DNA of 64,000 nt from Tagaea sp. (lineage in GTDB: Bacteria > Pseudomonadota > Alphaproteobacteria > CACIAM-22H2). Of this stretch, positions 22,458 to 43,051 are shown in pieces. Positions within the stretch are counted from its first letter, which is position 1; each line of letters starts with the position of its first letter. The DNA is taken from positions 363,998 to 427,997 of the forward strand of contig CBDIIB010000005.1 in NCBI GenBank assembly GCA_965279525.1, given 5' to 3'. A program made the position numbers and the translations under genes. The notes beneath the pieces are model-generated. The model was given only the letters and a program-made list of their open reading frames with translations. It searched no databases and was not told the DNA's origin.

Positions 22458-22464
22458 GGGCCGG

Positions 22465-23469
22465 TCAGCCCGCCTTGCGCACGCTCAGGTTGGCACCGCC
22501 CTGCAACTCGGTGCCGAAGCAGCGCTGGTAGTATTCGGCGACCGTCGTGCGCTCGACCTCGTCGCACTTGTTGAGGAATGTGAGGCGGAACGCGAAGCCG
22601 ACATCGCCGAATATCTTGGCGTTCTCGGCCCAGGTCAGCACGGTGCGCGGGCTCATCACCGTCGAGATGTCGCCCGCCATGAAGCCGGCGCGCGTGAGAT
22701 CGGCCAACGCGACCATCGCCGAGACGATCTCGCGCCCTTCCTTGGTGTCGTAGCCCGACGCCTTGGCCAGCACGATCTTCGTCTCCTGCTCGTGCGGCAG
22801 GTAGTTGAGCGTCGTGACGACGTTCCAGCGGTCCATCTGGCCCTGGTTGATCTGCTGCGTGCCGTGATAGAGGCCCGTCGTGTCGCCGAGGCCGACCGTA
22901 TTGGCTGTCGCAAAGAGCCGGAAAGCCGGGTGCGGATGCAGCACGCGGTTCTGGTCGAGCAGCGTGAGCTTGCCGTCGACTTCCAGCACGCGCTGGATGA
23001 CGAACATCACGTCGGCGCGGCCGGCGTCGTATTCGTCGAACACGAGCGCGCAGGGATGCTGGAGCGCCCAGGGCAGCAGCCCCTCGCGGAACTCGGTCAC
23101 CTGCTTGCCGTCGCGCACGACGATGGCGTCGCGCCCGACGAGGTCGATGCGGCTGATGTGGCTGTCGAGATTGATGCGGATGCACGGCCAGTTGAGGCGG
23201 GCGGCGACCTGCTCGATATGCGTCGACTTGCCCGTGCCGTGGTAACCCTGGACCATCACGCGCCGGTTGAAGGCGAAGCCTGCGATGATGGCGAGCGTCG
23301 TCTCCTTGTCGAAGCGGTAATTCTCGTCGACGTTGGGGACGTGCTCGGTCGGGGCGACCGAGAAGGCGGGAACCTCGAGATCGGAATCGATGCCGAAGGT
23401 CTGGCGGACCTTCACCTTGATGTCGGGAACGCGCGCGTAATCGGCGGACGCAGTCGTCACTGTGGCCAT
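22465..23469 (-). CDS. cobS: Aerobic cobaltochelatase subunit CobS (AAA+ ATPase)
   Basis: [31 protein letters not shown] Walker A region, 334 aa, directly upstream of cobT. Confidence 0.85.
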
Positions 23470-26725: not shown

Positions 26726-26726
26726 G

Positions 26727-27873: not shown

Positions 27874-28875
27874 CTAGCCCGCCCGTTTGCGCAGGTCGGC
27901 AAGCAGGTCGGCCGGCACCTTGATGCCGCCGGCGGCGGACGCGGCCCGCAGCTTCAGCCGCCGCTCGCCGGGCAGGCGCGTGCCGGATTGCGCGAGGATG
28001 GCGCCCAGCAGCACCTCCAGCCGCGTGGCGAACGCAGGGCCGGCGAAACGCTGGGGATCGATCAGCAGGAAGAACTGGCCCACGCGCGGCGGCCCGCCCT
28101 TGGCGTCGAAGAACGAGCTGGCTTCGTAGCCGAAATTCGATGCGGTGAGTGCGGCCGCGAGGATCTCGACCATCAGCACCAGCGCCGCCCCCTTGGCGTC
28201 GCCCAGCGGGAGCATCGTGCCGGCCATCGCCTTCTTGGGATCGGTCGTCGGATTGCCGTCGGGATCGAGCGCCCAGCCTTCGGGGATCGTCTCGCCTTTC
28301 TGGGCGGCCACCATGATCTTGCCGCGCGCGACCTTCGACAGCGACAGGTCGACGACGAGTGGCGCCTTGCCCGCGCGCGGAGCCGCGAACGCGATGGGGT
28401 TGGTGCCGAACAGTGCCTTCGACCCGCCCCACGGGGCGATGGCCGACGGCGAGTTGCCGAACAGGAGGGCGACCAGCCCTGCCTTCGCCGCCGCCTCGAC
28501 GTGATAGCCGGCCGCCCCGAAATGATGCGAGTTGCCGATCCCGACGCCCACGACACCGGCCGTCTTCGCCATGTCGATGCCCTTCGCGATGCCGGCGGCG
28601 ATGGCCGGATAGGCGAACCCGTCCTTCGCGTCGACGAACAGCGCGCCGGGCGCGTTGACGCGCAGCTCGGGCACGGCCGTACCCGCGACCTTGCCGGCCT
28701 TGGCCTGGTCGGCATAGGCGGCGACACGGCTCAGACCGTGGCTGGCGAGCCCGTCGGCTTCCGCCGCGACGAGCGCGTCGGCGACGGCGCCCGCGTTGGC
28801 GGGTACCGTACCGGCGGCGACAAGTGCCTTCAGCACCAGCGCATGCGCGTCGGCCAGCGAAATGGTCTCGCTCAT
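27874..28875 (-). CDS. Ldh2-family oxidoreductase (malate/L-lactate/sulfolactate dehydrogenase family, ComC-like)
   Basis: 333 aa from MSETISLADAHALVLKAL. Ldh_2 core (GNSHHFGAAGYH). ATGA overlap with the upstream 2-HADH stop. Confidence 0.75.
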   Translation of the reverse strand: MSETISLADAHALVLKALVAAGTVPANAGAVADALVAAEADGLASHGLSRVAAYADQAKAGKVAGTAVPELRVNAPGALFVDAKDGFAYPAIAAGIAKGIDMAKTAGVVGVGIGNSHHFGAAGYHVEAAAKAGLVALLFGNSPSAIAPWGGSKALFGTNPIAFAAPRAGKAPLVVDLSLSKVARGKIMVAAQKGETIPEGWALDPDGNPTTDPKKAMAGTMLPLGDAKGAALVLMVEILAAALTASNFGYEASSFFDAKGGPPRVGQFFLLIDPQRFAGPAFATRLEVLLGAILAQSGTRLPGERRLKLRAASAAGGIKVPADLLADLRKRAG

Positions 28876-29822
28876 TTCGACCCCTTGATGCCGAGATTCG
28901 CCAACGCACTGCGCACGTTGGCGACCGTCACGCTGGAAACGCGCACGTTGCCCTCGGCGGTCACGCCGGCGATGTGCGGCGTCAGCCACAGGCGCGGAGC
29001 ACCTTCGAGCACCGAGCCCGCCTTCAGCGGCTCCTTGTCGAAGACGTCGATCGCGGCGCCGCCGAGCGTGCCGGCCTTCAGGGCGGCGGCCAGAGCGGCC
29101 TCGTCGATGATGCCGCCGCGCGACGTGTTGATCAGGATGGCGGACTTCTTCATCTTCGCGAGGCGCGCCGCGTCGATCAGGTTGCGCGTCTGCGGCGTCA
29201 AGGGCACATGCAGCGAGATCACGTCGGACGTGGCGCAAAGCTCCTCGACCGTGGCGATGCGTGTCACGCCGTACTGCTTCCACGCCGGATCGTCCGGCTT
29301 CAGCATCGGGTCGTAGGCCGCAAGATCCATTTCCAGCGCCTTCGCGCGCGTCGCGACCGCGCGCGCGATCCCGCCGAAGCCCACGAAGCCGAGGCGCTTG
29401 CCCATCGCCTCGCCCAGCATCAGGTCGTTGCGCGGCCACTTGCCGGCGAGCACGTCGGCATTGGCCTTCCAAACGTCGCGAAGGCACACGAGCGTTGCCG
29501 CGATCACGTATTCGGCGACCGAAACGGTGTTGGCCCCCGTCGCCGGGAAGACCTGGATGCCGCGCTTCGCGCATTCGTCCATGTCGATATTGTCGAGCCC
29601 GACGCCCAGCCGGCCGATCACCTTCAGGTTCTTCATCGCGGCAAGCACGGGGCCGCGGACCTGCGTGAGGTTGCGCACGATGATCGCCGGGCTTTCCGCG
29701 GCAAGCTTCGCGAGTTCCTCGGGCTTCGACACGAGGGTGCGGTCGTAATGGACCTTGTAATCCTTCGCCAGATCGTCGACCGCCCACTGGTCGACGAATT
29801 CGCTCACGACGATGTCGTACAT
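28872..29822 (-). CDS. D-isomer-specific 2-hydroxyacid dehydrogenase (NAD-binding)
   Basis: 316 aa from MYDIVVSEF. Rossmann GFVGFGGIARAV. Catalytic RGGIIDE and PH motif. Confidence 0.8.
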   Translation of the reverse strand: MYDIVVSEFVDQWAVDDLAKDYKVHYDRTLVSKPEELAKLAAESPAIIVRNLTQVRGPVLAAMKNLKVIGRLGVGLDNIDMDECAKRGIQVFPATGANTVSVAEYVIAATLVCLRDVWKANADVLAGKWPRNDLMLGEAMGKRLGFVGFGGIARAVATRAKALEMDLAAYDPMLKPDDPAWKQYGVTRIATVEELCATSDVISLHVPLTPQTRNLIDAARLAKMKKSAILINTSRGGIIDEAALAAALKAGTLGGAAIDVFDKEPLKAGSVLEGAPRLWLTPHIAGVTAEGNVRVSSVTVANVRSALANLGIKGSK

Positions 29823-29823
29823 T

Positions 29824-31437
29824 CTACATCTGCTCCATGTATTCGGCCGGATCGACGATTGCGTCGATGACCGTGAATTTGCGCGACGAAACGGCCGCCG
29901 CAAAGGCTTTTTCGAAGTCGGCCAGCGTTTCGACGCGCACGCCGACGGCCCCGCACGCCTGCCCGATCTGGTCGAAGCGCGGTCCCTTGAAGTCGACGGC
30001 ACGCGGTGCCATCTGCATCTTGGCTTGCTTGAGCTTGATCAGCGACAGCGCCCCGTCATTGAGCACGACGACGACGATCGGCAGGCCCAGTTCGGCCGCC
30101 AGCGGCAGCTCGCCCGCCGTCATCAGCATGCAGCCGTCGCCGACCAGCGCCACGACGGGCGCATCCGGACAGGCAAGCTGCGCGCCGATGGCCGCCGGCA
30201 CCGCATAGCCCATGCAGCACAGGCCGTTGGATTGCAGCAGCTGGCCGGACGACCGGCACTTGACCGAATGGTTGGCAAGGATGCGATGCGCGCCGACATC
30301 GACCGTCAGTTTCCAGTCGGGTGCCACGCGGTCCGACACGGCCTTGAACAGGCCGGCGGGCGAAATGCCCTTGGCCGGAGCGCGCGGCCGCACGATGTGC
30401 GCGACCGCATCGCGGCAGGCCTTGAGTGTCGCCGCGGGCCATGCACCCGCCCCTGGCTCGCCCGACGACGAAAGCTGGCCGAGCATCGCCGGCAGGTCGC
30501 CGTAGCATTCGGTGCCCAGCGGGAAAATGCGGTGGTTGAGCGGCCCCCAGTCGAGCGTGAGCACCGCGCGATCCTGCGGCCACGCATCAAGCCACGCATC
30601 GCGCAGCTCGATCGGATCGAAGCCGACGCACACGATCCGGTCCGCTTCGCGCACGATCTTCATGTTTTCGCCGTCCACGACCGGCGACAGGCCGACCGCG
30701 CCCAGGCACAGCGGATGGGCTTCGTCGATCACGCCCTTGGCCTTGTAGGTGGCGAAGAACGGCAGGCGCCAGGATTCGGCGAAACGGCGCAGCATGTCGG
30801 GCACGCCTTCATGCACCGCCCCGCGCCCGACCAGCAGCAGCGGGCGCTTGGCGCGCGCGATCGCGAGGCGAGCCGCAACCGCCGCATCGCCGGCAAGTGC
30901 GGTGCGCGCGACCGCGACCGGGCGGGCATCGAAATTCTCGGTCGATTCCGCACGGCCCAGATCGGCCGGGATATTCAGCATCACCGGGCCGGCCGGATAG
31001 GCCATCGCGATGTCGAGCGCGCGCGCCATCTGCTGGGCGGGGCGTGCCGCGTTGAGCGTGGCGGCATATTTGGTGACGGGTGTGGCCAGCGCCACATGGT
31101 CGAAGACCTGGTGGTTGTAGATCTGCGCGTTGGATGTGGCCATCTCGCCGGTCAGCACCGCAAGCGGCGAGCGCTCCATCAGTGCACCCGCGATGCCCGC
31201 CGTCGCGTTGGCGATGCCGGGGCCGAGTGCGGGGATCAGCACCTGCGGCCTGCCGGTGATCTGGCAAACCGCATCGGCCATGAACGCGGCAGCGGGTTCG
31301 GATTTCGCCAGCACGAAGCGGATGCCGGCTTCCTCGCACGCGCGCACGGTTTCCAGCACGTCGTTGCCGGGGATGCCGAACGCGAACGTGGCCCCCCAGT
31401 TGCGCAAGGTGGCGGCAAGCTTGTCGGCGACTTTCAA
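29824..31437 (-). CDS. Thiamine-diphosphate-dependent enzyme (acetolactate synthase large subunit / 2-ketoacid decarboxylase-lyase-like)
   Basis: 537 aa. TTG start with AGGAG SD gives MKVADKLAATLRNWGATFAFGIPG. C-terminal TPP-binding GDGCMLM...LNDGALS motif. Confidence 0.75.
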   Translation of the reverse strand: MKVADKLAATLRNWGATFAFGIPGNDVLETVRACEEAGIRFVLAKSEPAAAFMADAVCQITGRPQVLIPALGPGIANATAGIAGALMERSPLAVLTGEMATSNAQIYNHQVFDHVALATPVTKYAATLNAARPAQQMARALDIAMAYPAGPVMLNIPADLGRAESTENFDARPVAVARTALAGDAAVAARLAIARAKRPLLLVGRGAVHEGVPDMLRRFAESWRLPFFATYKAKGVIDEAHPLCLGAVGLSPVVDGENMKIVREADRIVCVGFDPIELRDAWLDAWPQDRAVLTLDWGPLNHRIFPLGTECYGDLPAMLGQLSSSGEPGAGAWPAATLKACRDAVAHIVRPRAPAKGISPAGLFKAVSDRVAPDWKLTVDVGAHRILANHSVKCRSSGQLLQSNGLCCMGYAVPAAIGAQLACPDAPVVALVGDGCMLMTAGELPLAAELGLPIVVVVLNDGALSLIKLKQAKMQMAPRAVDFKGPRFDQIGQACGAVGVRVETLADFEKAFAAAVSSRKFTVIDAIVDPAEYMEQM

Positions 31438-31447
31438 GGCAAGGCTC

Positions 31448-33172
31448 CTATTCGGCGGCCCGGTCGAGAAGGCTCTCGCCCGGCCGCACGCGGGTGAAGG
31501 CGACGGGTTCCATCGCCACGTCGAGCGTGTCGGCGCGTGTCCGCACCAGCGTATAGCGCGACGTCGGCAGGTCACCGGCTTCCGGGTGGTCGGCGCGGAA
31601 ATGGGCGCCGCGGCTGTCGGTGCGCGCGACGGCCGCCGCCCGGATCGATTTCGACACGGCGACGAGGTTCTTGAGGTTCAGCCAGTCATGCCAGGTGAGA
31701 TTGAAGGCGCGCGTCGTCTCGGCCACGCCGGCCTCGTCGAGAGCGGCATCGAGATCGTCGAGCACGCCGCCGGCACGCGCGAGGCTGGCTGCATCGCGCA
31801 CGATGCCGACATCTTCCCACATCGTGTCGGCAAGCTTCTCGCGGATCGGCTCGAGGTCGCGCGGCTTGCGCGCGAACGGGGCAAGTGCGCGCGCGGTCGC
31901 GGCCGCGATGGCCGTTTCGTCGGGTGCACGCAGTTCGCCGCGCGCGGCCACCCAGCGCGCCATGCTGTCGCCGGCCAGCCCGCCGAACACGGTCGAGTTC
32001 GCCACGCCGTTGCCGCCCAGCCGGTTGGCGCCATGCACGCCGCCGGTATCCTCGCCGGCCGCGAACAACCCGGTAAGATCCGTCGTGCAGTCGCCGCGGA
32101 ACGGCACGCCGCCCATCATGTAGTGGGCCGTCGGCACCACTTCGACGCGCCCGCCGGCAAGATCGAAGCCGCAATCGGCGCAGCGTTCGACCATGCCTTT
32201 GAAGCTCTTGCGCACCATGTCAGGTCCCAGATGGTGCATCTGCAGATAGACGCCGCCAAGTGCGGTGCCGCGGCCCTTGCGCACGATGTCGAACACCGCG
32301 CGGCTGACGACGTCGCGCGTCGCGCGTTCGCCCTGCGCGTCGTACTCCGCCATGAAACGCGTGCCGTCCTTGTCGAGCAGCCAGCCGCCCGCCCCGCGCA
32401 GGCCCTCTTCCAGCACCGTGCCGGTCATGCGCGTGTCAGGTCCGGCGAGCAGGCCGGTGGGGTGGAACTGAACCATCTCCATGTCGCGCAAGGGCAGGCC
32501 GGCGCGCAGCGCCATCGCCATGCCGTCGCACGCCTTGTCGCCCGACGGCGTGTGGTAGCGGTACATGGTCGGTCCGCCGCCGGTTGCCAGCAAGACGGCC
32601 TTGGCGCGCACGAACACGAATTCGCCGTCGCGCATGTCGATCATCAGCACGCCGGCGAGCGCCGAGCCGTCGGCCGTGCGCACGAGCTCGATCGCGCGAT
32701 GCTCTTCCAGCCGGTCGATGCCGCGCGCCCAGACCTGCTCGGCAAGGCGGTTGACGATCTCGATGCCGGTGAGGTCGCCCTTGTGGACGGTGCGGTCGAA
32801 GGTCTGCCCGGCGAACGCCTTCTGGTGGACCGTGCCGTCCGGGTTGCGGTCGAAGAAGCAGCCCAGCTCGTTCTCCAGCTCGCGGATGCGCACCTGCGCG
32901 ACCGTGACGAGCGTCCAGGCGAGATCCTGGTCGTTGAGCCACTTGCCGCCCTCGATCGTGTCCATGAAATGGCGTTCGGCGCTGTCGCCTTGGGCGAGCG
33001 CCACGTTGTAGCCGCCCTGCACCATGCGCGTGCAGCCGCACTTGCCGAGCAGGCCCTTGACCGCGATGGTGATCTTGAGCGCCGGGTCCGCCTTGTGCGC
33101 ATGCAGCGCCGCGAACAGGCCCGCCCCGCCTGCACCCAATATCAGAATGTCGGTATCGACCCGCCTCATGCC
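31448..33172 (-). CDS. FAD-dependent fumarate reductase / succinate dehydrogenase-flavoprotein family protein (FrdA/SdhA/NadB-like)
   Basis: 574 aa from MRRVDTDILILGAGGAGL. HPTG and HYMMGG motifs and C-terminal RGAHFRADHPE. Confidence 0.8.
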   Translation of the reverse strand, partial: GMRRVDTDILILGAGGAGLFAALHAHKADPALKITIAVKGLLGKCGCTRMVQGGYNVALAQGDSAERHFMDTIEGGKWLNDQDLAWTLVTVAQVRIRELENELGCFFDRNPDGTVHQKAFAGQTFDRTVHKGDLTGIEIVNRLAEQVWARGIDRLEEHRAIELVRTADGSALAGVLMIDMRDGEFVFVRAKAVLLATGGGPTMYRYHTPSGDKACDGMAMALRAGLPLRDMEMVQFHPTGLLAGPDTRMTGTVLEEGLRGAGGWLLDKDGTRFMAEYDAQGERATRDVVSRAVFDIVRKGRGTALGGVYLQMHHLGPDMVRKSFKGMVERCADCGFDLAGGRVEVVPTAHYMMGGVPFRGDCTTDLTGLFAAGEDTGGVHGANRLGGNGVANSTVFGGLAGDSMARWVAARGELRAPDETAIAAATARALAPFARKPRDLEPIREKLADTMWEDVGIVRDAASLARAGGVLDDLDAALDEAGVAETTRAFNLTWHDWLNLKNLVAVSKSIRAAAVARTDSRGAHFRADHPEAGDLPTSRYTLVRTRADTLDVAMEPVAFTRVRPGESLLDRAAE

Positions 33173-33777
33173 TTCACGCCGACGGCGGCGAGGGCTGCCG
33201 CACGCCGGTCCTGCGCCGTGGCGCGGACCTTGTCGTAGATCGAGCCGCCATGGCTGTCCATCGCCACCAGCAGAGGCCCGAAGCCCTTCACCTGGAAATG
33301 CCACAGGCTTTCGGGATTGAGATCGTCGAGATCGACGTCGACGATGCGCTCGATCCATGTCGTCTCGAGGGCTGCCGTGCCGCCGATGATCGCCAGATAC
33401 GCCCCGCCCAGCTCCGTGAACGCCGCTTGCGAGGCCTCGCGCAGGCCGCCCTTGCCGATAATCAGGCGCACGCCGTACTGCGCCATCAGCGGCTTCGAGA
33501 AGCGCTCCATGCGGTCGGACGTCGTCGTGCCCACGCAGACCGGCTGGTAGCCGACCGGGCACTCGTTCGACAGCGGCACCTTGCGCACGTTGGGGGCCGT
33601 GTGGATCACGGCATGGCCCTTCATGTCGAAGCGCGTCGTGCGGCCGCGGTCGAACATGTGGATCTGGGTGGCGTCGCGGATGCCGAACAGCGAGCCGGTC
33701 AGCGTGACGGTATCGCCGGTCCGCAGGCTTCGCACCTGCGCCTCGTCCACCGGCATGCGGAATTCGTGGTGGGCCAT
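33166..33777 (-). CDS. Fe-S hydro-lyase beta subunit (class I fumarase C-terminal / L(+)-tartrate dehydratase TtdB-like)
   Basis: 203 aa. Aligns to the FumA/TtdB C-terminal domain (GSLFGIRDATQIHMF...). Confidence 0.75.
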   Translation of the reverse strand: MAHHEFRMPVDEAQVRSLRTGDTVTLTGSLFGIRDATQIHMFDRGRTTRFDMKGHAVIHTAPNVRKVPLSNECPVGYQPVCVGTTTSDRMERFSKPLMAQYGVRLIIGKGGLREASQAAFTELGGAYLAIIGGTAALETTWIERIVDVDLDDLNPESLWHFQVKGFGPLLVAMDSHGGSIYDKVRATAQDRRAAALAAVGVKA

Positions 33778-33781: not shown

Positions 33782-34669
33782 TCAGAACCCGATCTCGACG
33801 CCGGTCGGCGTGAAGGTGGCGCTCGCGCGCCTTGCCGAGTGGCACTGGATGTTGACGGCCACCGGATTCATCGTGATGTGCGTGGCCGCCGTCTCGACAT
33901 GCACCGCGAAGGCCGTGCCATCGCCACCAAGCCCCTGCGGGCCGATACCCAGCGAGTTGACCGCCCCCGACAGCAGCCTTTCGAGCTTGGCACCTTCTTC
34001 ATCGTCGCACACGCTGCCGAGTGCGCGCGTCGCCGCGACCTTGGCGAGATGCATGCACAGGTCGGAGGTGCCACCGATCCCCACGCCCACGATGGTCGGC
34101 GGGCAGACCTTGCCGCCGGCTTCCATCACGCGATCGATGACGAAGGTCTTGATGCCGTCGATCCCGTCGGCCGGGATCAGCATCTTCAGGAACGAGCCGT
34201 TCTCCGACCCCGATCCCTTCGGGATCATCTCGATGCGCAAGGTGCGCGGGGCGTCGATGAAATCGATGTTGATGACCGGCACGCGGATGCCCGATGAGGT
34301 GTGCTCGTTCTTGCGCGTGATCGGATGCACGACCGACGAGCGCAGCGGGTATTCCTTCGTCGCGCGCGCCGTGCCGCGCCGGATCGCTTCCTTCAGCGCG
34401 ATGCCGTCCACGTCCACGTCGCGGCCGATCTCGATGTTGAAGATCGGGATGCCGGTGTCCTGGCACAAGAGGTTGTCGGTCTTTTCGGCCACCGCGATGT
34501 TCTCGATCATCGTGGCGAGGATCGTGCGGGCCGTGCCGTCGGTCTCGGCGGCGTCCAGCCGCGTGAAGCCGCGCTTGATGTCGTCGGGCAGCAGCTTCAG
34601 CGCACGTATATAGAGGAGCTTCGCCGCCTCCTCGACCGCCGCGATGTCGATATGGAGCTTTGCGCTCAC
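33782..34669 (-). CDS. Fe-S hydro-lyase alpha subunit (class I fumarase N-terminal / TtdA-like). GTG start.
   Basis: 295 aa from (V→M)SAKLHIDIAAVEE with GGAGG SD. Cys ligands in CQDTG and GIGG. GTGA overlap with the enolase-superfamily stop. Confidence 0.75.
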   Translation of the reverse strand: MSAKLHIDIAAVEEAAKLLYIRALKLLPDDIKRGFTRLDAAETDGTARTILATMIENIAVAEKTDNLLCQDTGIPIFNIEIGRDVDVDGIALKEAIRRGTARATKEYPLRSSVVHPITRKNEHTSSGIRVPVINIDFIDAPRTLRIEMIPKGSGSENGSFLKMLIPADGIDGIKTFVIDRVMEAGGKVCPPTIVGVGIGGTSDLCMHLAKVAATRALGSVCDDEEGAKLERLLSGAVNSLGIGPQGLGGDGTAFAVHVETAATHITMNPVAVNIQCHSARRASATFTPTGVEIGF

Positions 34670-35784
34670 GACGCCTCCGCGTATCGCTTCAGGAGATCGG
34701 GGTCGGGATCGTAGCCGAGGCCGGGCCGGTCGGGCAGGTGCAGGCGCCCGGCGCGGATGTGCGGGAAATCGTCGAACACCGAATCGCGCAGCGGATTGTC
34801 CTGTGCGTCGACCTCCAGCCGCCCGTCGCCGCCGACTGCCGCCAGCAGGTGCGCGCTTGCCAGCAGGCCCACACCGCCGCCCAGATAATGCGGGCAGAAC
34901 ATGAAGCCGGCCTCGCGCACGGCACGCCCCAGCGGCACGCAAGCCGAGAAGCCGCCCCACTTGGCGATGTCGGGCTGCAACACGCCGAACGCGTTGGACG
35001 CGATGGCTTCGCGGAACTGCGCGGCCCCACGCATGTTCTCGCCGCCCGCGATGGGAGCGGCACTGAGGCCCGCGACAAGCTGCCATTCGCCTTCGGGGGC
35101 ATCGACCGCCAGCGGCTCCTCGATCCAGCCGAGATTGAAGGGTGCGAACTCGCGCACGCGGCGTGCGGCGGTCTCGGCGTCCCACGCCTGGTTGGCGTCG
35201 ACCACGATGAACGCCTTGGGCCCGAGGGCGGCACGAAGGCCCGCGATGTTCTTCAAGTCCGCCTCGGGTGCGAAGCCGACCTTGAGCTTGAAGCCGTCGT
35301 AGCTCTGCGCGAGGCGCACCAGCGCCTGCTCGACCGCACCGTCCGGACCGAGGCCGGAGGCATAGACCGCGACGTCGCTGCGCGCCCCGCCCAGATGCTT
35401 CCACAGCGGCAGGCCGGCGCGGCGCGCGCTCAGGTCCCACAGCGCCTGGTCGATGCCGGCCAGCACCTGCGCGAAGGTGCCGGGCTCGCCGCACTGGAGC
35501 GACAGGATGCGCGTCTTGCCTTCGAGGATATCGAAGGCCGCGCGCGGGTCCTCGAACGTCGCACCTTTGAGCAGCGGCGCGAAGATATCGTCGAACAGCC
35601 GGCGGCGGGCGGCACCGGCCCCGGGCGGGAAGTTGCACCAGATCTCGCCCCAACCGACGGCGCCGTCGGAATCCTCTAGACGAACGAGCAGCATCGTGCG
35701 CGCGCGCATGGCGCCGAACGCGGTGCGGATCGGCGTTGCGAGCGGATAGAGATGTAGCAGTGCCTGTGCGCGCGCGATTTTCAT
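34666..35784 (-). CDS. Enolase-superfamily (mandelate racemase / muconate lactonizing enzyme family) dehydratase/racemase
   Basis: 372 aa from MKIARAQALLHLYPLATPIRTAFG. KVG...DANQAW...EEP metal-ligand pattern. Confidence 0.75.
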   Translation of the reverse strand: MKIARAQALLHLYPLATPIRTAFGAMRARTMLLVRLEDSDGAVGWGEIWCNFPPGAGAARRRLFDDIFAPLLKGATFEDPRAAFDILEGKTRILSLQCGEPGTFAQVLAGIDQALWDLSARRAGLPLWKHLGGARSDVAVYASGLGPDGAVEQALVRLAQSYDGFKLKVGFAPEADLKNIAGLRAALGPKAFIVVDANQAWDAETAARRVREFAPFNLGWIEEPLAVDAPEGEWQLVAGLSAAPIAGGENMRGAAQFREAIASNAFGVLQPDIAKWGGFSACVPLGRAVREAGFMFCPHYLGGGVGLLASAHLLAAVGGDGRLEVDAQDNPLRDSVFDDFPHIRAGRLHLPDRPGLGYDPDPDLLKRYAEAS

Positions 35785-35786: not shown

Positions 35787-36671
35787 CTAGCGCTGCATGC
35801 CCCAGCGGCGGACCGTGCGCGCCTCGACGGCGCGGAAGATCACGCCCTCGACGAACAGGCCGATGACGATGACGGTCAGCAATCCGGCAAACACGTTTGC
35901 GGTCTCCAGCAGGTTGCGGTTCTCGAAGATGTACCAGCCCAGCCCGCCCGAACGTGCCGAGACGCCGAACACCAGCTCGGCCGCGATCAGCGTTCGCCAG
36001 GCGAACGCCCAGCCGATCTTGAGGCCGGCCAGGATCGACGGGAACGCCGCCGGGATCAGGATCTTCATCACGAAGCGCACGCCGCGCAGCCCGTAGTTGG
36101 TGCCCGCCATGCGCAGCGTCTCGGAGACCGACTTGAAACCGGTATGCGTGTTGAGCGCCACCGCCCACAGGACCGAATGCACGATGACGAACACCAGCGA
36201 CGGGATGCCGAGGCCGAACCACAGCAGGGCGAGCGGCAGCAACGCGATCGCCGGCAGCGGATTGAACATCGCGGTCAGCGTGGAAAGCAGGTCGTTGCCG
36301 AAGCGCGTGGAAACGGCAAGCGTCGTGAACACGGCCGCCAGTGCGAGCCCCGAGCCGTAGCCCACGAACAGCACCTGCAGTGTCGTGGCCATGCGCCCGA
36401 GCAGCGGGCCGGTTACGAACGCGTCGTAGAAGGCCTGCGCCACCTCGTGGAAGGGCGGGAACATCAGCGGATTGCCGAGCCAGCGCCCGTAGAGCTCCCA
36501 GGCACCCGCCAGCGCCAGGACGATGACGAGACGCCGGATCCAGGTCTGGTTCCAGATGCGCTCGAAGGCGGAAAGCGGCCGCTCGACCTCGCCGAACTGG
36601 GCAGCCCCCACTTCGCGGACCTCGAATTCGGCGCGGACCGGCGGCGTGATGCGTGCGGCGGCGTCAACCAT
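35787..36671 (-). CDS. ABC transporter permease (NitT/TauT family)
   Basis: 294 aa, multi-TM, EAA-like loop. Adjacent to a matching ATPase and substrate-binding protein. Confidence 0.8.
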   Translation of the reverse strand: MVDAAARITPPVRAEFEVREVGAAQFGEVERPLSAFERIWNQTWIRRLVIVLALAGAWELYGRWLGNPLMFPPFHEVAQAFYDAFVTGPLLGRMATTLQVLFVGYGSGLALAAVFTTLAVSTRFGNDLLSTLTAMFNPLPAIALLPLALLWFGLGIPSLVFVIVHSVLWAVALNTHTGFKSVSETLRMAGTNYGLRGVRFVMKILIPAAFPSILAGLKIGWAFAWRTLIAAELVFGVSARSGGLGWYIFENRNLLETANVFAGLLTVIVIGLFVEGVIFRAVEARTVRRWGMQR

Positions 36672-37479
36672 GGGCGTCCGCCTTCTCCTGCTCGATGCGT
36701 TCGGCGAACAGCATGTCGTGGATGCGCCGCTGCAGGGCCTGGAACTCGACCCCGCCCTGTGCCGTGTGGTCGAACTGGTGGCAGTTGAGCTCGGCCTTCA
36801 CGCGGCCGGGATGCGGCGACAGCACGAGGATGCGGCTGCCCACAACGATGGCTTCCTCGATCGAGTGCGTGACGAACAGCACGGTGAAGCGCACGTCGTC
36901 CCACAGCTCGAGGAGTTCTTCCTGCATCTTGCGCCGCGTCAGCGCATCGAGGGCCGCGTAGGGTTCGTCCATCAGCAGGATGTCGGGTTCCATCGCCATC
37001 GCGCGCGCGATGGCCACGCGCTGCTTCATGCCGCCCGACAGCATGTGCGGGTAGACGTCGATGAACTTGGTCAGGTTCACCTTCTCGATGAAGTGGCGCG
37101 CACGCGCCGCCGCCTCGGTCTTGTTCCACTTGCCCGCGCACAGCATCGGGAACATGACGTTCTCGAGCACGGTCTTCCACGGCAGCAGCTGGTCGAATTC
37201 CTGGAAGACCATCATGCGGTCAGGACCCGGCCGGTCGATCGTGCGCCCGTTGAGCGCCATGGTGCCTTCGACCGGCGTCATGAAGCCGGCCACGCCCTTC
37301 AGCAGCGTCGACTTCCCGCAGCCCGATGGCCCCAGCAGCACGAACCGGTCGCCGCGCTGCACCTCGAAACTGACGCGGTACGTCGCGGTGACCAGATGTT
37401 CGGCCGTCTTGTACTGGAGCGTCACCCCGTCGACCTTCAGGATCGGCGGGGTGACGCCGGAGGCGTCTGCCATCGTCAA
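36664..37479 (-). CDS. ABC transporter ATP-binding protein (NitT/TauT family)
   Basis: Walker A GPSGCGKST, signature LSGGMKQRVAIARA, Walker B ILLMDEP. 271 aa. Confidence 0.85.
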   Translation of the reverse strand: MTMADASGVTPPILKVDGVTLQYKTAEHLVTATYRVSFEVQRGDRFVLLGPSGCGKSTLLKGVAGFMTPVEGTMALNGRTIDRPGPDRMMVFQEFDQLLPWKTVLENVMFPMLCAGKWNKTEAAARARHFIEKVNLTKFIDVYPHMLSGGMKQRVAIARAMAMEPDILLMDEPYAALDALTRRKMQEELLELWDDVRFTVLFVTHSIEEAIVVGSRILVLSPHPGRVKAELNCHQFDHTAQGGVEFQALQRRIHDMLFAERIEQEKADAHG

Positions 37480-37489: not shown

Positions 37490-38509
37490 CTAGGATCCCT
37501 GCACGCCGTGCAGGCCGGGGAAGAACATCTCCTTCCAGTCGGCCGGCTTTTCCTTGACCGTGCCGGTGCGCTGCATGAACTCGGCGTACTTCATCGTGTT
37601 CTTCGGCACGACGGTGAACTCGTGCTGCGGATCGTTGAGGAGCGACATCACGAATTCCTTCGGCGGCGCTCCCTTCTCGACGCGCATGTAGATGTCGGCC
37701 GCGCGGTTCTTGTCGTTCGTGATGATGGCCTGCGCCTCGACGAGCGCATCCTGGAACGCCTTGTAGACGCGCGGGTTCTGCGTGCGGACCTTGTCGGTCG
37801 TCCAGACGAAGTTGAACGAGCACGGGCCGCCCAGCACCTCGTAGTTCGACAGCACGCGCTTCACCTTGGCGTCCTGGAGCTGCAGGTTCTGGAAGGGCGG
37901 CGAGCCGAAATGCGCCGTGATCTCGCTCTTGCCCGACATCATCGCGTTCATCGCGTCGGGGTGCGACATCGAGACGGTGATGTTGTCGAGCCTGTCGTGC
38001 TTGCCGGCACCGAAGGCCTTCTCGCAGGCCATCTGGAGCGTGATGGCCTGGATGGAGACGCGCACGGCCGGCAGGCCGATGCGGTCCTTGTCGGTGAAGT
38101 CGGCGATGGTCTTGACGGCGGGATTGACGGTGTTGAGGTAGAGCGGAAGCGAATTGAGCGAGGCCACGCCCTTGACGTTGAGCGAGCCCTTGGTGCGCGC
38201 CCACAGCACGATCATCGGCCCCACGCCGCCACCGGCGAATTCGAGATTGCCCGAGATCAGCGCGTCGTTGATGGGGGCACCGCCCGCGAACTGGAGCCAG
38301 TTCGTCTTGACGTTGGGAAGGCCCGCGGCAGCCGCGTGCTTCTCGATCAGCTTCAGGTCTTCCATGATCATCAGCGGCAGGTAGGAGATGCCGAACTGCT
38401 TGGCGATGCGCACTTCGCCGATCTCCTGCGCGTGCGCGATCCCGGGGGCGGCGAGCACGGCGGCGGCGCCGGCGACGAAGGCGCGGCGGGTCGGACGGAT
38501 ATCGGACAT
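37490..38509 (-). CDS. ABC transporter substrate-binding protein, NitT/TauT (SsuA/TauA-like aliphatic sulfonate/nitrate) family, Tat signal
   Basis: 339 aa from MSDIRPTRRAFVAGAAAVLAAPGIAHAQ. Periplasmic SsuA/TauA-like fold. Confidence 0.75.
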   Translation of the reverse strand: MSDIRPTRRAFVAGAAAVLAAPGIAHAQEIGEVRIAKQFGISYLPLMIMEDLKLIEKHAAAAGLPNVKTNWLQFAGGAPINDALISGNLEFAGGGVGPMIVLWARTKGSLNVKGVASLNSLPLYLNTVNPAVKTIADFTDKDRIGLPAVRVSIQAITLQMACEKAFGAGKHDRLDNITVSMSHPDAMNAMMSGKSEITAHFGSPPFQNLQLQDAKVKRVLSNYEVLGGPCSFNFVWTTDKVRTQNPRVYKAFQDALVEAQAIITNDKNRAADIYMRVEKGAPPKEFVMSLLNDPQHEFTVVPKNTMKYAEFMQRTGTVKEKPADWKEMFFPGLHGVQGS

Positions 38510-38588: not shown

Positions 38589-39317
38589 TCAGGCAACGAG
38601 AACGACTCCCGAAGCCAGCAGCAATCCCAAGACGATACGCCGGAACGTCGCGTCGTCGACGCGCGCATAGAGCCGGAGGCCGATCCACACGCCCAGCGCC
38701 ACGGCCGGCAGGCACCACAGGAAATCCGAAACCGCCTGCGGGCCGATCCCGCCGTCGAAATAAAGATAGACGAGCGCCACGGCCTGCATGACGAAGATGT
38801 AAGGCTGGTAGACGCCGCGCTGCTCGTTTTTCGACCAGCCGCGCAGGCCGGTCCACGGCGTGGGGATCGCCCCCGACAGGCCGCCGAGCCCGCCCAGCAC
38901 CCCGCCGACGAAGCCGACCGCCCCGTCGAGCGGTGCCCCGCCGAAACGGATCGGCCGCGGCACCCCGCGCGCCAGCATGTAGATGGCATAGACGACGAGG
39001 AAGACGCCGATCGCGCGCTTCAGCGGCTCGGGCGACACGCTCTGCAGCAGCAGCACGCCGAGCGGGATGCCGATCACGCCACCGATCAGGAACGGGGCGA
39101 GCCGACGCCAGTCGATCGCGTCGCGCACGCCGAGAATCGAGAAGGTCTGCGCCAGCAGGCTCGCCGCCAGCACCAGGGGGGTGGCATCAACCGGCAGGCG
39201 CAGATGCAGATAGACCGCCGACGCGATCAGCGCGAAGGCGAACCCCGCCAGCCCCGACGCGATGGCCGCCACGAAAGACGCGAGCATCAGCCAGACTTCG
39301 CTCGGCACTTCGTTCAT
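38589..39317 (-). CDS. TauE/SafE family sulfite exporter (DUF81)
   Basis: 242 aa, 7-8 TM segments with Gly-rich repeats (GGVIGIPLGVLLL / GGVLGGLGGLSGAIP). Start overlaps the SdhC-like stop. Confidence 0.75.
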   Translation of the reverse strand: MNEVPSEVWLMLASFVAAIASGLAGFAFALIASAVYLHLRLPVDATPLVLAASLLAQTFSILGVRDAIDWRRLAPFLIGGVIGIPLGVLLLQSVSPEPLKRAIGVFLVVYAIYMLARGVPRPIRFGGAPLDGAVGFVGGVLGGLGGLSGAIPTPWTGLRGWSKNEQRGVYQPYIFVMQAVALVYLYFDGGIGPQAVSDFLWCLPAVALGVWIGLRLYARVDDATFRRIVLGLLLASGVVLVA

Positions 39318-39676
39318 GCCGCCATCACGTTGAACGCGAACAGCAACCCCGCCGCGATCGCGAAACCGGCACTGGCGGCGACGGCCGTCTTCTGCCGGTC
39401 GCTCCACGGCAGGAACTCGACCGCCAGCAGACGCACGCCGCCGGCCATGTGCGCGGCGAGCAGCACGACGAGACCGGTCTCGGCGAACTTGACCAATGCG
39501 TTGTCGGTCCAGCGCAGCATGCCGTCCAGTGCGGCCTCGCCGCCGATGGCCGTACCCAGCGCCCAGAAATGCAGCGGCACGAAAAGCGTCAGCGCCAGCC
39601 CGGACAACCGGTGCACGGCAAACGCCCACCACGCGGGGTGCTTGCGGTGCCGAAAAGAGGGGGGCGGCCGGTTCAT
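39314..39676 (-). CDS. Succinate dehydrogenase / fumarate reductase cytochrome b subunit-like membrane anchor (SdhC-like)
   Basis: 120 aa, 3 TM, His-containing HRLSGLAL motif. Confidence 0.6.
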   Translation of the reverse strand: MNRPPPSFRHRKHPAWWAFAVHRLSGLALTLFVPLHFWALGTAIGGEAALDGMLRWTDNALVKFAETGLVVLLAAHMAGGVRLLAVEFLPWSDRQKTAVAASAGFAIAAGLLFAFNVMAA

Positions 39677-40017
39677 GCGAACAGGCCGGCGACCGCGCGC
39701 CAGCCGAACCAGACGAGGAATGCCGCGAACGTGGCGGTCGCCAGATCAAGCGCCGGGCCGCGCCAGCCGAACGTCTCGCGCAGGATGGCGCGCAGGCCGA
39801 CGGGGGCATGGACCGCGACCGCGAGAACGAACAGGCCGTAGAACAACGCCAGGCCGAACGAACCGCGCGTGCGCGACAGGATCTCGGCGGCCGTCAGCCC
39901 GCCGCGCACCGCATAGAGGATCGTGGCCAGATGCACGAGCACGCACACGGCGAGCACGGCGGCACTGGCGCGTTGCGCCCCCCACAGCAGCGTTTCGGCG
40001 CGCGCGCGAAATCTCAT
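39673..40017 (-). CDS. Succinate dehydrogenase hydrophobic membrane anchor-like subunit (SdhD-like)
   Basis: 114 aa from MRFRARAETLLWGAQRASAAVLAVCVLVHL, 3 TM, overlaps neighbours by 4 nt. Confidence 0.55.
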   Translation of the reverse strand: MRFRARAETLLWGAQRASAAVLAVCVLVHLATILYAVRGGLTAAEILSRTRGSFGLALFYGLFVLAVAVHAPVGLRAILRETFGWRGPALDLATATFAAFLVWFGWRAVAGLFA

Positions 40018-40727
40018 GCCCCGCCCTTCCATGCCGCGCGCAGCGTGGCGCGCTTCAGCCCCGCGATCGACGCGGTGGGGTTGAGCGATTTGGGGCAGTG
40101 CTCGCGGCACGACTGGTGCGAATGGCAGGCATGGCAGCCCGCGTCGCCGGCGACCGCGTCGAGACGCTCGGCGTTGCCGGCATCGCGCACGTCGTTGACC
40201 AGCGTCCACGCGCGGTTGAGGGCGGCGGGCCCGAGATACTCGGCGTTCCACGCCACGAGATCGCAGGCCGAATAGCACACCGCACAGCCGATGCACTCGA
40301 TGCCCGCGTCGGCGGCTTTTCGTTCGGCACTTGCCGGCTCGACCACCGCGAAATCCGCACCGGCGTCGGCCGAGGGCACGAACCTTCCGCCGGCCTTCGC
40401 CCATTTGTCGAAGAACGGCGCCATGTCGGCGGCGAGATCCTTGATGCGCGGCAGGTTGCGCAGCGGCTCGACCGTCAGCGGGCCGCCTTCCAGACGCGAC
40501 ACGTGCGTGCGGCAGGTCCAGCGAGGCTTGCCGTTTACCGTCATCGCGCACGAGCCGCACATGCCCACGCGGCACGCGAATCGGTACGAGAGCGTCGGGT
40601 CGAGCTTGCGCTGGATATATGTGACCACGTCGAGCACGGTCTGGCTCGCGCGGCGCGGAACGGAAAAGGTCTCGAACCTTCCGTCCGCGCCGCCGCGCCA
40701 GATCCGCGCGTCGATCGTGTCGGCCAC
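40014..40727 (-). CDS. Succinate dehydrogenase / fumarate reductase iron-sulfur subunit-like (SdhB/FrdB-like)
   Basis: 237 aa. 2Fe-2S CRVGMCGSCAM. 4Fe-4S CIGCAVCYSAC and CHACHSHQSCREHCP. Confidence 0.8.
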   Translation of the reverse strand: MADTIDARIWRGGADGRFETFSVPRRASQTVLDVVTYIQRKLDPTLSYRFACRVGMCGSCAMTVNGKPRWTCRTHVSRLEGGPLTVEPLRNLPRIKDLAADMAPFFDKWAKAGGRFVPSADAGADFAVVEPASAERKAADAGIECIGCAVCYSACDLVAWNAEYLGPAALNRAWTLVNDVRDAGNAERLDAVAGDAGCHACHSHQSCREHCPKSLNPTASIAGLKRATLRAAWKGGA

Positions 40728-40734: not shown

Positions 40735-41943
40735 CTAGGCGCTCTGGTAGAGCTTCGTCATCACGAATTCGCGATGCCCGAGGGCCTCGGCGCAGGTGTA
40801 GCGGCCGTTGCACACGCGGATCATCACGTCGATCAGACGGTCGCCCGCCTCATCGAGATCCATCTCGCGGCGCAGGATGCCGGAGACGTCGAGATCGATA
40901 TGCTCGGGCATCTCGCGCGCGGTCTTCGGGTTCGCCGTGAGCTTGATGACCGGCTCGATCGGGTTGCCGATGACGTTGCCCTGCCCCGTCGGGAACAGGT
41001 GCACGACGAAACCGGCGGCCGCCTGCAGGGTCACGCATTCGGCCGCGGCCGACGACGTGTCCATGAAGTAGAGACCTGCCCCCTTCTTGGGCATCTCGGC
41101 GGGGGCGAGCACGTCCACGTACTTCGTCTTGTGGCCGATCTTCTGGAAATTGCCGAAGGCCTTTTCCTCGATCGTCGTCAGGCCGCCCGCGATGTTGCCC
41201 TTGGTCGGCTGGGATTCCGACAGGTCGCTCGTCTTGAAGCGGTTGATCATGTCCTGGTAGGCGTTGAAGATCGTCATGAACTTGTCGGCGGTCTTCTTGT
41301 CGACCGCGCGCTTGACCATCTCCTTCTCGGCCCCGGTCAGCTCCGAGGTCTCGCCAAAGCACGTGGTGGCACCCAGCGGATCGACCTTGTCGATGAGGTT
41401 GCCGACCGTCGGGCACGAGGCGAGGCCCGACGTGGTGTCGGACTCGCCGCACTTGGTCGAGACCCACAGCTCCTCGATCGTGCACTGCTCGCGCTGCTTC
41501 TCGGTCGCCCACATGACGAACTGCTGCGCCACGCGGCTGGCGGCCTCGATCGTGCGCAGGTCGCCGTTGCCTTCGATGGCGAAGCCCTGCACGGGCTTGC
41601 CGGTCTTGGCGATGCCTTCGACCACGCGGCCCGTCCAGCCCGGCTCGATGCCGATGACGACGACGGCCGCGACGTTGGCGTTGCAGCCGGTGCCGATCAG
41701 CGTGCGGAAGTGGAGTGCGAGATCCTCGCCGAACTGCAGGCGCCCGTAGGCGTGCGGCAGCGCCATCGTGCCCTTGATGTTGTTGGCGACGGCTTCGGCC
41801 GCCGCGTTCGACAGGTCGTCGAGCGGCAGGATGATGACGTGGTTGCGGATGCCGACACGCCCGTTTTCGCGGCGATAGCCCATGAAGGGCAGCTTGCCGG
41901 TGTTCTTCGAGCGCTTCTTGATGATCGCGGGGGCCTTGGCCAT
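40735..41943 (-). CDS. UxaA-family dehydratase large subunit (altronate hydrolase C-terminal domain. SuyB-like (2R)-sulfolactate sulfo-lyase beta).
   Basis: 402 aa, UxaA C-terminal catalytic domain only. Paired with a separate SAF-domain small subunit upstream, as in SuyAB. Confidence 0.65.
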
Positions 41944-41956
41944 GTCGATCTCTCCC

Positions 41957-42241
41957 TTACCAGCGCTTGGTTTTCATGTTGTGGATATGGACGTGGTCGC
42001 CCTTCTTGGTATCCGCGACGACCTTGCCGATGTCGTGCCCGTACTTGATCACGGTGTCGCCCTTCTTGAGGTCGACCATCGCGATCTTGTGGCCGAGCGG
42101 AATGGCCTTGAGCGCCTTCACGCGCACGGTCCCGTCGCCTTCCATGAGCCAGCCTTCGAGGGCGGCACCCGGCTTGACGGTTTCGACGACGATGACACCG
42201 ACGGTGTCCTTCTTGTCGTGGACGATGAATTGGGTCGCCAT
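41957..42241 (-). CDS. SAF-domain small subunit (UxaA N-terminal domain. SuyA-like sulfo-lyase alpha).
   Basis: 94 aa [30 protein letters not shown]... SAF/flagellar-FlgA-like fold immediately upstream of the UxaA large subunit. Confidence 0.65.
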
Positions 42242-42315: not shown

Positions 42316-42329
42316 GTCTTATATAAGAC
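42316..42329. promoter_or_regulatory. Perfect 14-bp palindrome GTCTTATATAAGAC (GntR-type operator consensus GT-N10-AC) 9 nt upstream of the gntR ATG
   Basis: Read directly. Lies in the 96-nt divergent intergenic region between the SuyA-like gene and the gntR gene. Confidence 0.7.
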
Positions 42330-42337: not shown

Positions 42338-43051
42338 ATGGAAACGCGCCCGCTCTACCGCCAGATCAAGGAAGCGCTGATGCGCCGTCTCGTCGACGGG
42401 CGCTGGCGTGCGGGCGAGCTGATCCCGTCCGAGCATGCGCTCGCATCCGAGCTTGGCGTGAGCCAGGGCACGGTGCGCCGGTCGCTCGACGAGCTGGCCC
42501 GCGCCAACCTCGTCGTGCGCCGGCAGGGCAAGGGCACGTTCGTGGCCGAGCACACGCGCGAGCGCGCCCTGTTCCACTTCTTCCATCTGGTCGGCGACGA
42601 CGGCAAGCGGGCTTTGCCCGGCAGCCGCGTGCTGGCCGTCAAGGCGGGGCCGGCCTCGCGCGAGGAAGCGCGCCGGCTCGAACTTGCCGCCGGCGCGAAA
42701 GTGGTGCGGCTCCATCGCCTGCGCATGCTCGACGGGCGTGCCGCGATCGTCGAGCGCATCGTGCTGCCGGCCACCCTTTATGACGGGATCGAACGGCTCG
42801 ACCGCGCGGGCCTGCCCAACGAGCTCTACAAGCTCTACCAGGACCGCTACGGCGTGTCGGTCGCGCGCGCGGCCGAAAAACTGAAGGCCGCCCCGGCGGG
42901 GCCGGAAGATGCCGCACATCTGGGCCTGCGCAGCGGGGCGGCCGTGCTGGAGATCGACCGGATCGCCTACGCGCTCGACGGCAGGCCCTGCGAATGGCGG
43001 GTATCCCGCTGCGATACGGCCGCCCACCACTACGTTTCCGAAGTGGTCTAG
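42338..43051 (+). CDS. GntR-family transcriptional regulator (HutC/UTRA subfamily)
   Basis: 237 aa. Winged HTH (LIPSEHALASELGVSQGTVRRSLDELA) and UTRA effector domain. Transcribed divergently from the 19-gene operon. Confidence 0.85.
   Translation: METRPLYRQIKEALMRRLVDGRWRAGELIPSEHALASELGVSQGTVRRSLDELARANLVVRRQGKGTFVAEHTRERALFHFFHLVGDDGKRALPGSRVLAVKAGPASREEARRLELAAGAKVVRLHRLRMLDGRAAIVERIVLPATLYDGIERLDRAGLPNELYKLYQDRYGVSVARAAEKLKAAPAGPEDAAHLGLRSGAAVLEIDRIAYALDGRPCEWRVSRCDTAAHHYVSEVV

Follow-up and report, generated by a model that had tools for sequence, protein, structure and literature searches.

The gene pair and its assignment to the SuyAB family

We studied two adjacent minus-strand genes, here called suyA and suyB, in a 64,000-nucleotide stretch of the Tagaea sp. 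contig CBDIIB010000005.1 (the window, whose numbering is used throughout). The genes are separated by 13 nt and lie first in a tightly packed operon of at least 16 genes that runs on the same strand from 42241 down to 27874, successive genes being separated by gaps or overlaps of a few bases, 4-nt overlaps included. Both begin with ATG preceded by a Shine-Dalgarno-like sequence, GAGGGGGAA for suyA and GGGAGAG for suyB, and their third-position GC contents (0.89 and 0.94, in a region of about 67% GC) are as expected for real genes of this genome. Upstream, suyA borders a 96-bp spacer from which a gene of the GntR/HutC family is transcribed divergently, and the fourth gene downstream of suyB encodes a TauE-family protein. 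The original prediction, made from the sequence alone, had described a split UxaA-family pair of 94 and 402 amino acids, first after the region on the GntR side and followed four genes on by TauE. All of this was confirmed, the two open reading frames having exactly the positions and sizes given there.

The large protein matched the Pfam domains PF04295 (GD_AH_second, 2.5e-32) and PF20629 (GD_AH_C, 2e-85), and its sole solved homologue in the PDB was the galactarate dehydratase 6u7l (3.4e-34). The small protein matched 3k3s, the solved N-terminal domain of an altronate hydrolase (1.7e-10); the equivalent segment of Escherichia coli UxaA matches Pfam SAF at 1.4e-13. The galactarate dehydratase model TIGR03248 has 507 positions, of which 6-78 align with the small protein and 106-493 with the large one; the two together thus tile one normally fused protein.

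Sequence comparison indicated that the pair very probably represents SuyA and SuyB, the subunits of (2R)-3-sulfolactate sulfo-lyase, leading a GntR-linked operon. When the large subunit was searched by tblastn against 72,556 annotated plasmid records the identities were bimodal, with 13 records at 67-71% and the rest at 38.5% or less (445 records below 60%). SuyB was 69% identical to the UniRef protein Q46N58_CUPPJ of Cupriavidus pinatubonensis (CUPPJ is the organism code of JMP134), whose gene adjoins hpsN/hpsO in the order LacI-hpsN-hpsO-MFS-dehydrogenase-suyA-suyB. It was 68% identical over 381 amino acids to SuyB of Paracoccus versutus, encoded in the order GntR (suyR)-suyA-suyB-"sulfate exporter" (suyZ). 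The P. versutus SuyA and Swiss-Prot Q58Y44, the SuyA of P. pantotrophus, are members of one 90% cluster, and the small subunit of the window was 58% identical to Q58Y44. An alignment of 13 sequences, comprising the SuyAB clade, split pairs from Variovorax, Metabacillus and Haloferax, and E. coli UxaA and GarD, gave concatenated identities of 61-86% within the SuyAB clade versus 28-37% outside it, and the clade motifs of SuyAB are present in the window protein. The galactarate dehydratase equivalog TIGR03248 scored 140 bits versus a cut-off of 731. In a collection of 5.8 billion proteins the best 120 matches were all at least 82% identical to the large subunit and came from Acidobacteriota, Chloroflexota-like, Rhodospirillales and other metagenome-assembled genomes (MAGs). 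The enzyme is an ordinary member of the SuyAB family, its exact protein cluster being already named suyB by JGI. The proposal of a SuyAB-like C-S lyase candidate, to be checked by alignment to SuyA/SuyB versus split GarD/UxaA homologues, was thus supported by sequence: the best characterised homologues are SuyA (58%) and SuyB (68-69%), not sugar-acid dehydratases, and the other UxaA-family proteins reach 38.5% at most.

The split architecture did not hold up as a SuyAB signature, since split pairs at 33-37% identity also occur in sugar-acid and other contexts. A pair on a Metabacillus plasmid sits among KDG permease, FAH, GucD and DHDPS genes, and one on a Haloferax plasmid among sugar oxidoreductases; a heteromeric L-fuconate dehydratase of Paraburkholderia mimosarum has been deduced from the gene neighbourhood, the authors citing unpublished data (PMC6336799). 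As split UxaA genes are found in sugar-acid clusters too, the split alone is not diagnostic, and the earlier conclusion is justified by sequence, not by architecture alone. Two cysteines have been described as conserved in UxaA/GarD enzymes, with sulfolactate sulfo-lyase as the exception (PMC6336799). In the 13-sequence alignment, YGC is replaced by YGR in the window SuyB and GLGCE by GIEPGW, in which the cysteine is deleted; the cysteine of ECGGSD is kept, as it is in JMP134 and Paracoccus SuyB.

A split UxaA pair 37% identical to the window SuyAB, also without the two cysteines, was observed on a plasmid of Variovorax sp. SRS16 (locus L094, 2733-8285), where its neighbours are GntR, hydroxyacid dehydrogenase, Ldh_2 and TTT genes. 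Such a setting is reminiscent of a sulfolactate cluster, and the pair could therefore represent a divergent second clade of lyases.

Companion genes of the operon

The remaining genes of the operon encode relatives of complex II and class I fumarase subunits, a sulfonate-type ABC transporter, an exporter, two dehydrogenases, an enolase-superfamily protein and a thiamine pyrophosphate (TPP) enzyme (Table 1).

Table 1 Features of the suyA-suyB operon and of its upstream region in the window
Feature	Position	Strand	Remarks
GntR/HutC-family regulator (SuyR-like)	42338..43051	+	Divergent from suyA; NCBIfam HutC/PhnF-type matches
Perfect 14-bp palindrome GTCTTATATAAGAC, candidate GntR operator	42316..42329		Inside suyA-gntR spacer
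suyA, small subunit, 94 amino acids	41957..42241	-	ATG start; UxaA N-terminal beta-clip/SAF domain homologue
suyB, large catalytic subunit, 402 amino acids	40735..41943	-	ATG start; PF04295 + PF20629
SdhB/FrdB-like iron-sulfur subunit	40014..40727	-	Fer2_3, Fer4; TIGR00384 186 bits (cut-off 88)
SdhD-like membrane anchor	39673..40032	-	PF01127; start codon uncertain
SdhC-like cytochrome b subunit	39314..39676	-	PF01127; TIGR02970 55 bits (cut-off 52)
TauE/SafE-family anion exporter (sulfite or sulfonate)	38589..39317	-	PF01925 1.8e-34
SsuA/TauA-type periplasmic binding protein	37490..38509	-	Tat-like signal peptide; TIGR01728 SsuA_fam 2.6e-16 (below cut-off), NMT1_2
ABC ATPase, taurine/nitrate/sulfonate (NitT/TauT) type	36664..37479	-	Taurine ABC ATPase model 211 bits, below cut-off
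ABC permease (SsuC/TauC type)	35787..36671	-	
Enolase-superfamily (MR/MLE) protein	34666..35784	-	MR_MLE_N, MR_MLE_C; closest structure 3DDM, function unknown
Class I fumarase/TtdA-like Fe-S hydro-lyase alpha	33782..34669	-	PF05681 6.6e-88; NF004885 309 bits (cut-off 276)
Fumarase/TtdB-like beta subunit	33166..33777	-	PF05683; below all cut-offs
SdhA/FrdA-like flavoprotein	31448..33169	-	Best NCBIfam TfrA 495 bits (cut-off 718)
Acetolactate-synthase-like TPP enzyme	29824..31437	-	TTG start 8 nt past GGAG; three TPP_enzyme domains N, M, C
SlcC-like D-2-hydroxyacid dehydrogenase	28872..29822	-	2-Hacid_dh domains
ComC-like Ldh_2 dehydrogenase (sulfolactate/malate dehydrogenase family)	27874..28875	-	NF040650 L-sulfolactate dehydrogenase 7e-62, below cut-off

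By their sequences the D-2-hydroxyacid dehydrogenase and Ldh_2 genes appear to correspond to SlcC and ComC. The SlcC-like protein was 57% identical to the dehydrogenase of a Methylobacterium suyAB cluster, and the ComC-like protein 67% identical to the Ldh_2 protein encoded after suyAB-tauE in another of the compared loci (L007); a minimal cluster, suyA-suyB-tauE-Ldh_2, was found in a relative with an 85%-identical SuyB. The combination of SlcC/ComC, SuyAB and TauE is that of a published sulfolactate mineralisation system (PMC12421959). Since TauE-family proteins have also been proposed as exporters of sulfonates themselves (PMC11489063), TauE alone is no indicator of sulfite. As a clue to sulfite-releasing chemistry, TauE stood insofar as the gene is indeed in the operon, and lost its force insofar as the family is not sulfite-specific. 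The split and TauE had together been ranked as the strongest clue; sequence orthology, the SlcC/ComC genes and the conserved operator (see below), none of which the original prediction had used, are stronger.

The six complex-II-like and fumarase-like genes (hereafter the module) were inspected for the residues known from their relatives. Aligned to E. coli FrdA, the SdhA-like protein keeps H232, R287, H355 and R390. It has Cys at the FAD-attachment position His44 (GCTRMVQGG) and Glu at the active-site position Thr244 (EEGLRG), in segments formed by residues 42-53 and 251-262, and both substitutions are invariant in about 82 homologues. The protein scored below every curated SdhA, FrdA, TfrA and NadB cut-off. 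The invariant Cys and Glu substitutions and the lack of a curated model match argue against an ordinary succinate/fumarate substrate, and the FAD of this family may be free or Cys-linked. In the fumarase-like pair the alpha subunit presents the CQD and KGSGS motifs, and the beta subunit, aligned to the Methanocaldococcus jannaschii fumarase 7xky_B, keeps the Arg, TTSxR and GKGG substrate/catalytic residues; the pair retains the cluster ligand motif, the catalytic Asp and Thr, and the substrate Arg and Lys residues.

Distribution and regulation of the module

A scan with the SdhA-like protein, one genome per species, gave at least 598 matching stretches, of which the best 80 (about 70-76% identical) were examined. 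These loci belonged mostly to Burkholderiales, and also to Methylobacterium, Chelatococcus, Xanthobacter, Stellaceae and marine alphaproteobacteria. Forty of the best 80 were fully flanked, i.e., had at least 9 kb on both sides, and in these the genes sdhB-D-C, fumA-B and sdhA were kept in 37-39 loci (sdhB-like in 39, sdhD-like in 38). Of these 40 loci, 27 had an ortholog of SuyB (at least 60% identity) no more than 10 kb from the module, the median distance being 7.8 kb, and SlcC-like, ComC-like, TPP and SsuA-type ABC genes, with SlcC-like homologues in many loci, were frequent companions. On the P. versutus plasmid pTAV3 the module lies in one organosulfonate island with suyR-suyAB-suyZ, TauE, a YeiH/SuyZ-type exporter, SlcC/ComC, hpsN-like genes and a sulfite oxidase. 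The module was also present on a plasmid of the roseobacter Sulfitobacter (L101), and SuyB was not found in the 21.7-kb stretch of that plasmid carrying it.

The closest syntenic relative of the window operon, in a Phreatobacter sp. MAG (L006, 89% SuyB identity), is without the enolase-superfamily gene. It has an AcnX-type dehydratase pair (12645-14317) after the sdhC-like gene and before tauE, and a gene of the metallo-beta-lactamase fold (18681-19490) between fumA and fumB.

The enolase-superfamily gene occurred in none of the 80 related loci, and the homologue in P. seriniphilus belongs to a neighbouring sugar-acid cluster; it was rejected as a member of the conserved module. A 42%-identical homologue (13395-14534) and TauE follow fumB in the Sulfitobacter plasmid. 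The protein may be a racemase or a second beta-eliminating (desulfonating) lyase for the other sulfolactate enantiomer. Regarding the TPP enzyme, every NCBIfam match was below its cut-off, and two unrelated TPP-enzyme subfamilies recur beside the SdhA-like gene. We rejected the equation of the window enzyme with that of Methylobacterium and Burkholderiales (about 27-34% identity); an ortholog was found only in a Stellaceae locus (L079). Sulfopyruvate decarboxylation is one possibility for its role.

Packed right after the ComC-like gene are minus-strand genes for an acyl-CoA dehydrogenase, a family III CoA-transferase and a MaoC-like hydratase (24750-27869). The acyl-CoA dehydrogenase scored 205 bits with the NCBIfam 3-sulfinopropanoyl-CoA desulfinase model, far below its cut-off, and the three genes were rejected as members of the system because their association with the module is not conserved elsewhere. 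Further downstream, past the sulfonate region, the same strand carries unrelated housekeeping genes, CobS and CobT (aerobic cobaltochelatase subunits) and a 5'-nucleotidase (18947-23469). The 90%-identity clusters of these proteins include members from Tagaea, Magnetospirillum and Rhodospirillales MAGs, which makes an alphaproteobacterial chromosome the probable origin of the window.

The GntR protein was 37-52% identical to the products of suyAB-adjacent GntR genes in Paracoccus, Methylobacterium, Chelatococcus and Stellaceae. The palindrome GTCTTATATAAGAC in the suyA-gntR spacer occurs once in the window versus 0.01 expected. We scanned 92 loci (1.56 Mb) for it, allowing up to 2 mismatches and using shuffles as control, and obtained 20 sites versus 1.4 in the shuffles, 18 of them at most 400 bp upstream of suyA, sbp or sdhB. 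Ten loci carry the palindrome, unchanged or nearly so, upstream of suyA or of the sbp/sdhB module. It was found 5' of suyA in five other alphaproteobacterial genera (Methylobacterium, Sinorhizobium, Chelatococcus, Stellaceae and Paracoccus, in the last within the suyR-suyA spacer) and, in Methylobacterium, Chelatococcus and Xanthobacter, also 5' of the sbp-sdhB module, which is transcribed separately there. This placement supports GntR control of suyAB and puts the complex-II-like module in the same regulon; in the window the GntR/HutC regulator probably controls the operon through this putative operator. No promoter was recognised when the suyA-gntR intergenic region was scanned for the sigma-70 consensus.

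A possible 3-sulfopropanoate route and its relation to known systems

From the gene content and linkage described above we propose, as a plausible if tentative reading, that the module comprises enzymes of aerobic 3-sulfopropanoate catabolism, leading via sulfoacrylate to sulfolactate for SuyAB. The SsuA-type ABC system would import the sulfonate substrate; the complex-II-like enzyme (SdhA/B/C/D-like), membrane-bound and quinone-linked, would convert 3-sulfopropanoate to 3-sulfoacrylate; the two-subunit class-I-fumarase-like Fe-S hydratase would convert 3-sulfoacrylate to sulfolactate; and SuyAB would cleave sulfolactate to pyruvate and sulfite. The SlcC-like and ComC-like dehydrogenases would interconvert the sulfolactate enantiomers via sulfopyruvate, and TauE would export sulfite or a sulfonate. 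Such a route would mirror the conversion of succinate to fumarate and malate. By the Cahn-Ingold-Prelog (CIP) rules (2R)-sulfolactate has the spatial arrangement of (S)-malate, which is consistent with the name of the ComC model, L-sulfolactate dehydrogenase (NF040650). Owing to this match, a hydratase of fumarase-type stereochemistry would yield the SuyAB substrate directly, and one of tartrate-dehydratase type would yield the other enantiomer, convertible by SlcC/ComC. By analogy with UxaA/GarD and with published SuyAB, the lyase would depend on Fe(II), remove the C2 proton of sulfolactate and expel sulfite from C3 by beta-elimination, releasing enol-pyruvate that would tautomerise to pyruvate; the JMP134 enzyme has been described as an Fe(II)-containing (R)-sulfolactate sulfolyase (PMC12890257).

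The proposed substrate, 3-sulfopropanoate, is a product of bacterial fermentation of sulfoquinovose and of 2,3-dihydroxypropane-1-sulfonate (DHPS) and a sulfite source for Bilophila, as shown in 2024. Its degradation "has not previously been reported", one unpublished thesis excepted (PMC11489063); as summarized in that citing paper, the thesis describes a conversion of homotaurine to 3-sulfopropanoate, sulfoacrylate and sulfolactate in a Roseovarius strain, with no genes cited. A 2026 review calls the 3-sulfopropanoate mechanism in Bilophila unclear (PMC12890257), and our literature searches for a sulfoacrylate hydratase or a sulfopropanoate dehydrogenase found no gene assignment.

Two haloarchaeal plasmids, of Natribaculum luteum (L098, 4480-12453) and Haloarcula sp. 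GH36 (L100, 1675-11413), carry clusters with an SdhA-like gene (product 47-49% identical to that of the window), an SdhB-like gene, an ArgH/XcbC-like lyase, TauE and a TAXI-TRAP transporter. Both have a split UxaA pair 33-34% identical to the window SuyB, and the Haloarcula locus alone has an Ldh_2 gene. The ArgH-like lyase scored 260 bits on the model of XcbC, the coenzyme-M enzyme that makes sulfoacrylate. Judged by these matches, the lyase is a putative non-orthologous replacement of the "fumarase" step, following the same logic as the window operon.

Several observations weigh against the assignment of the lyase or against the route built on it. The SAF label given earlier to the small subunit is supported indirectly, by homology to 3k3s and TIGR03248, and not by Pfam SAF itself, which did not match the subunit even at E<=10. 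SuyB departs from the characterised enzymes at about 32% of its residues, which leaves room for a shift in substrate range, and SuyAB function is a prediction for the window protein as for its 80-94% subclade. Loss of the two cysteines was rejected as a SuyB-specific marker, given that the Variovorax and Haloferax split proteins are also without both. In complex II a histidine holds FAD covalently, a bond needed for efficient succinate oxidation, and the SdhA-like protein is without this residue. With both anion-binding ends of the fumarase-like pair fully conserved, its residues are uninformative on sulfonate versus carboxylate. The evidence for the module consists of gene linkage and shared operators, and the model makes no use of the enolase-superfamily and TPP genes of the operon.

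That the pair is instead a split sugar-acid dehydratase, of the altronate, galactarate, fuconate or arabinonate type, is highly improbable. Its Pfam domains are those of UxaA/GarD, its sole solved homologue is a galactarate dehydratase and split sugar-acid dehydratases do exist. However, such enzymes share 28-37% identity with it versus 61-86% inside the SuyAB clade, the TIGR03248 score falls far short of the cut-off, and the operon has no KDG kinase/aldolase, uronate isomerase or sugar transporter; this explanation is effectively refuted by sequence. We regard it as unlikely, though less so, that SuyAB is genuine and the complex-II-like and fumarase-like genes are passengers, i.e., C4-dicarboxylate or tartrate enzymes in an operon that imports and cleaves sulfolactate. 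The alpha subunit does pass the fumarate hydratase equivalog cut-off (309 versus 276 bits), all catalytic and substrate residues of fumarase and FrdA but one are conserved, and 13 of the 40 fully flanked module loci are without SuyB within 10 kb. Yet passengers would hardly be expected to be interleaved, with 4-nt overlaps, among suyAB, tauE and sulfonate-type ABC genes, to be found no farther than 10 kb from SuyB in 27 of 40 genomes belonging to different orders, or to share an operator with suyAB where the two are transcribed as separate operons. Moreover, the partnership is rebuilt with a non-homologous lyase on the two haloarchaeal plasmids, and no curated family claims the SdhA-like protein with its invariant Cys-for-His and Glu-for-Thr exchanges.

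The other alternative keeps the module in the pathway and changes the substrate: the lyase of the SuyAB clade would act on another 2-hydroxy-3-sulfo acid, e.g., 3-sulfomalate, and the operon would degrade sulfosuccinate via sulfofumarate and sulfomalate to oxaloacetate and sulfite. The beta-elimination chemistry would be identical, the lyase genes stand directly beside the complex-II-like and fumarase-like genes, and the conserved His/Arg/His/Arg set of FrdA together with both fumarase carboxylate sites would fit a substrate with two carboxylates. We nevertheless consider it improbable, as an 85%-identical SuyB occurs in minimal suyAB-tauE-ComC clusters without the module, the module-linked SuyB proteins belong to the same clade as the JMP134 and Paracoccus enzymes, and the SlcC-like and ComC-like genes speak for sulfolactate and sulfopyruvate. 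Whereas sulfosuccinate occurs mainly as the head group of synthetic surfactants, the module is present in at least 598 genome stretches at one genome per species, and a literature search for sulfosuccinate desulfonation genes found nothing relevant, which also counts against this substrate.

As an enzyme of the organosulfur cycle SuyAB is already known and widespread, and one more copy adds little; the interest of the locus lies in the operon and regulon led by suyAB as a testable candidate for a 3-sulfopropanoate route. The module occurs in cultivable organisms that can serve as test cases (Methylobacterium radiotolerans JCM 2831, Paracoccus versutus, Curvibacter delicatus and Polynucleobacter campilacus). 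If the 3-sulfopropanoate reading is true, a dehydrogenase of respiratory-complex type and an Fe-S hydratase would join the tools of sulfonate metabolism, and genes now labelled "FAD-binding protein", "succinate dehydrogenase" or "fumarate hydratase" could be better annotated.

Compared with SuyAB (EC 4.4.1.24) of P. pantotrophus NKNCYSA and C. pinatubonensis JMP134, the window pair shows the same two adjacent genes for a small SAF-like subunit of about 8-10 kDa and a large one of about 42 kDa (94+402 amino acids in the window, 93+391 and 96+393 in characterised loci). Common to these loci are a divergent GntR gene with a related operator, and TauE/SuyZ-type exporters and SlcC/ComC dehydrogenases nearby. 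Unlike the JMP134 and Paracoccus enzymes, the window pair belongs to a distinct, metagenome-abundant subclade whose members are 80-94% identical to one another, and its SuyB has a 20-residue N-terminal extension that is missing from theirs. It also heads an operon with complex-II-like, fumarase-like, enolase-superfamily and TPP genes, whereas known suyAB genes stand alone or beside hpsNOP. Other heteromeric UxaA-family pairs (Metabacillus, Variovorax, Haloferax) have the same small/large split at only 33-37% identity. The fused enzymes (E. coli altronate dehydratase; 6u7l) belong to the same superfamily and fold (beta-clip + GD_AH_second + GD_AH_C), with 28-30% identity, one polypeptide instead of two, and the two conserved cysteines that are gone in the window. 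By analogy, alpha-proton abstraction and beta-elimination are probably common to both, with sulfite and not hydroxide as the predicted leaving group in the window enzyme.

The module shares with complex II (SdhABCD/FrdABCD) the four-part subunit set and the FrdA substrate residues, but the FAD-attaching His and Thr244 are replaced. With class I fumarase/TtdAB it shares the motifs of a two-subunit Fe-S hydro-lyase, the alpha subunit passing NF004885 and the beta subunit remaining below all cut-offs. What sets it apart from complex II and fumarase is its location in sulfonate gene islands and the operator it has in common with suyAB.

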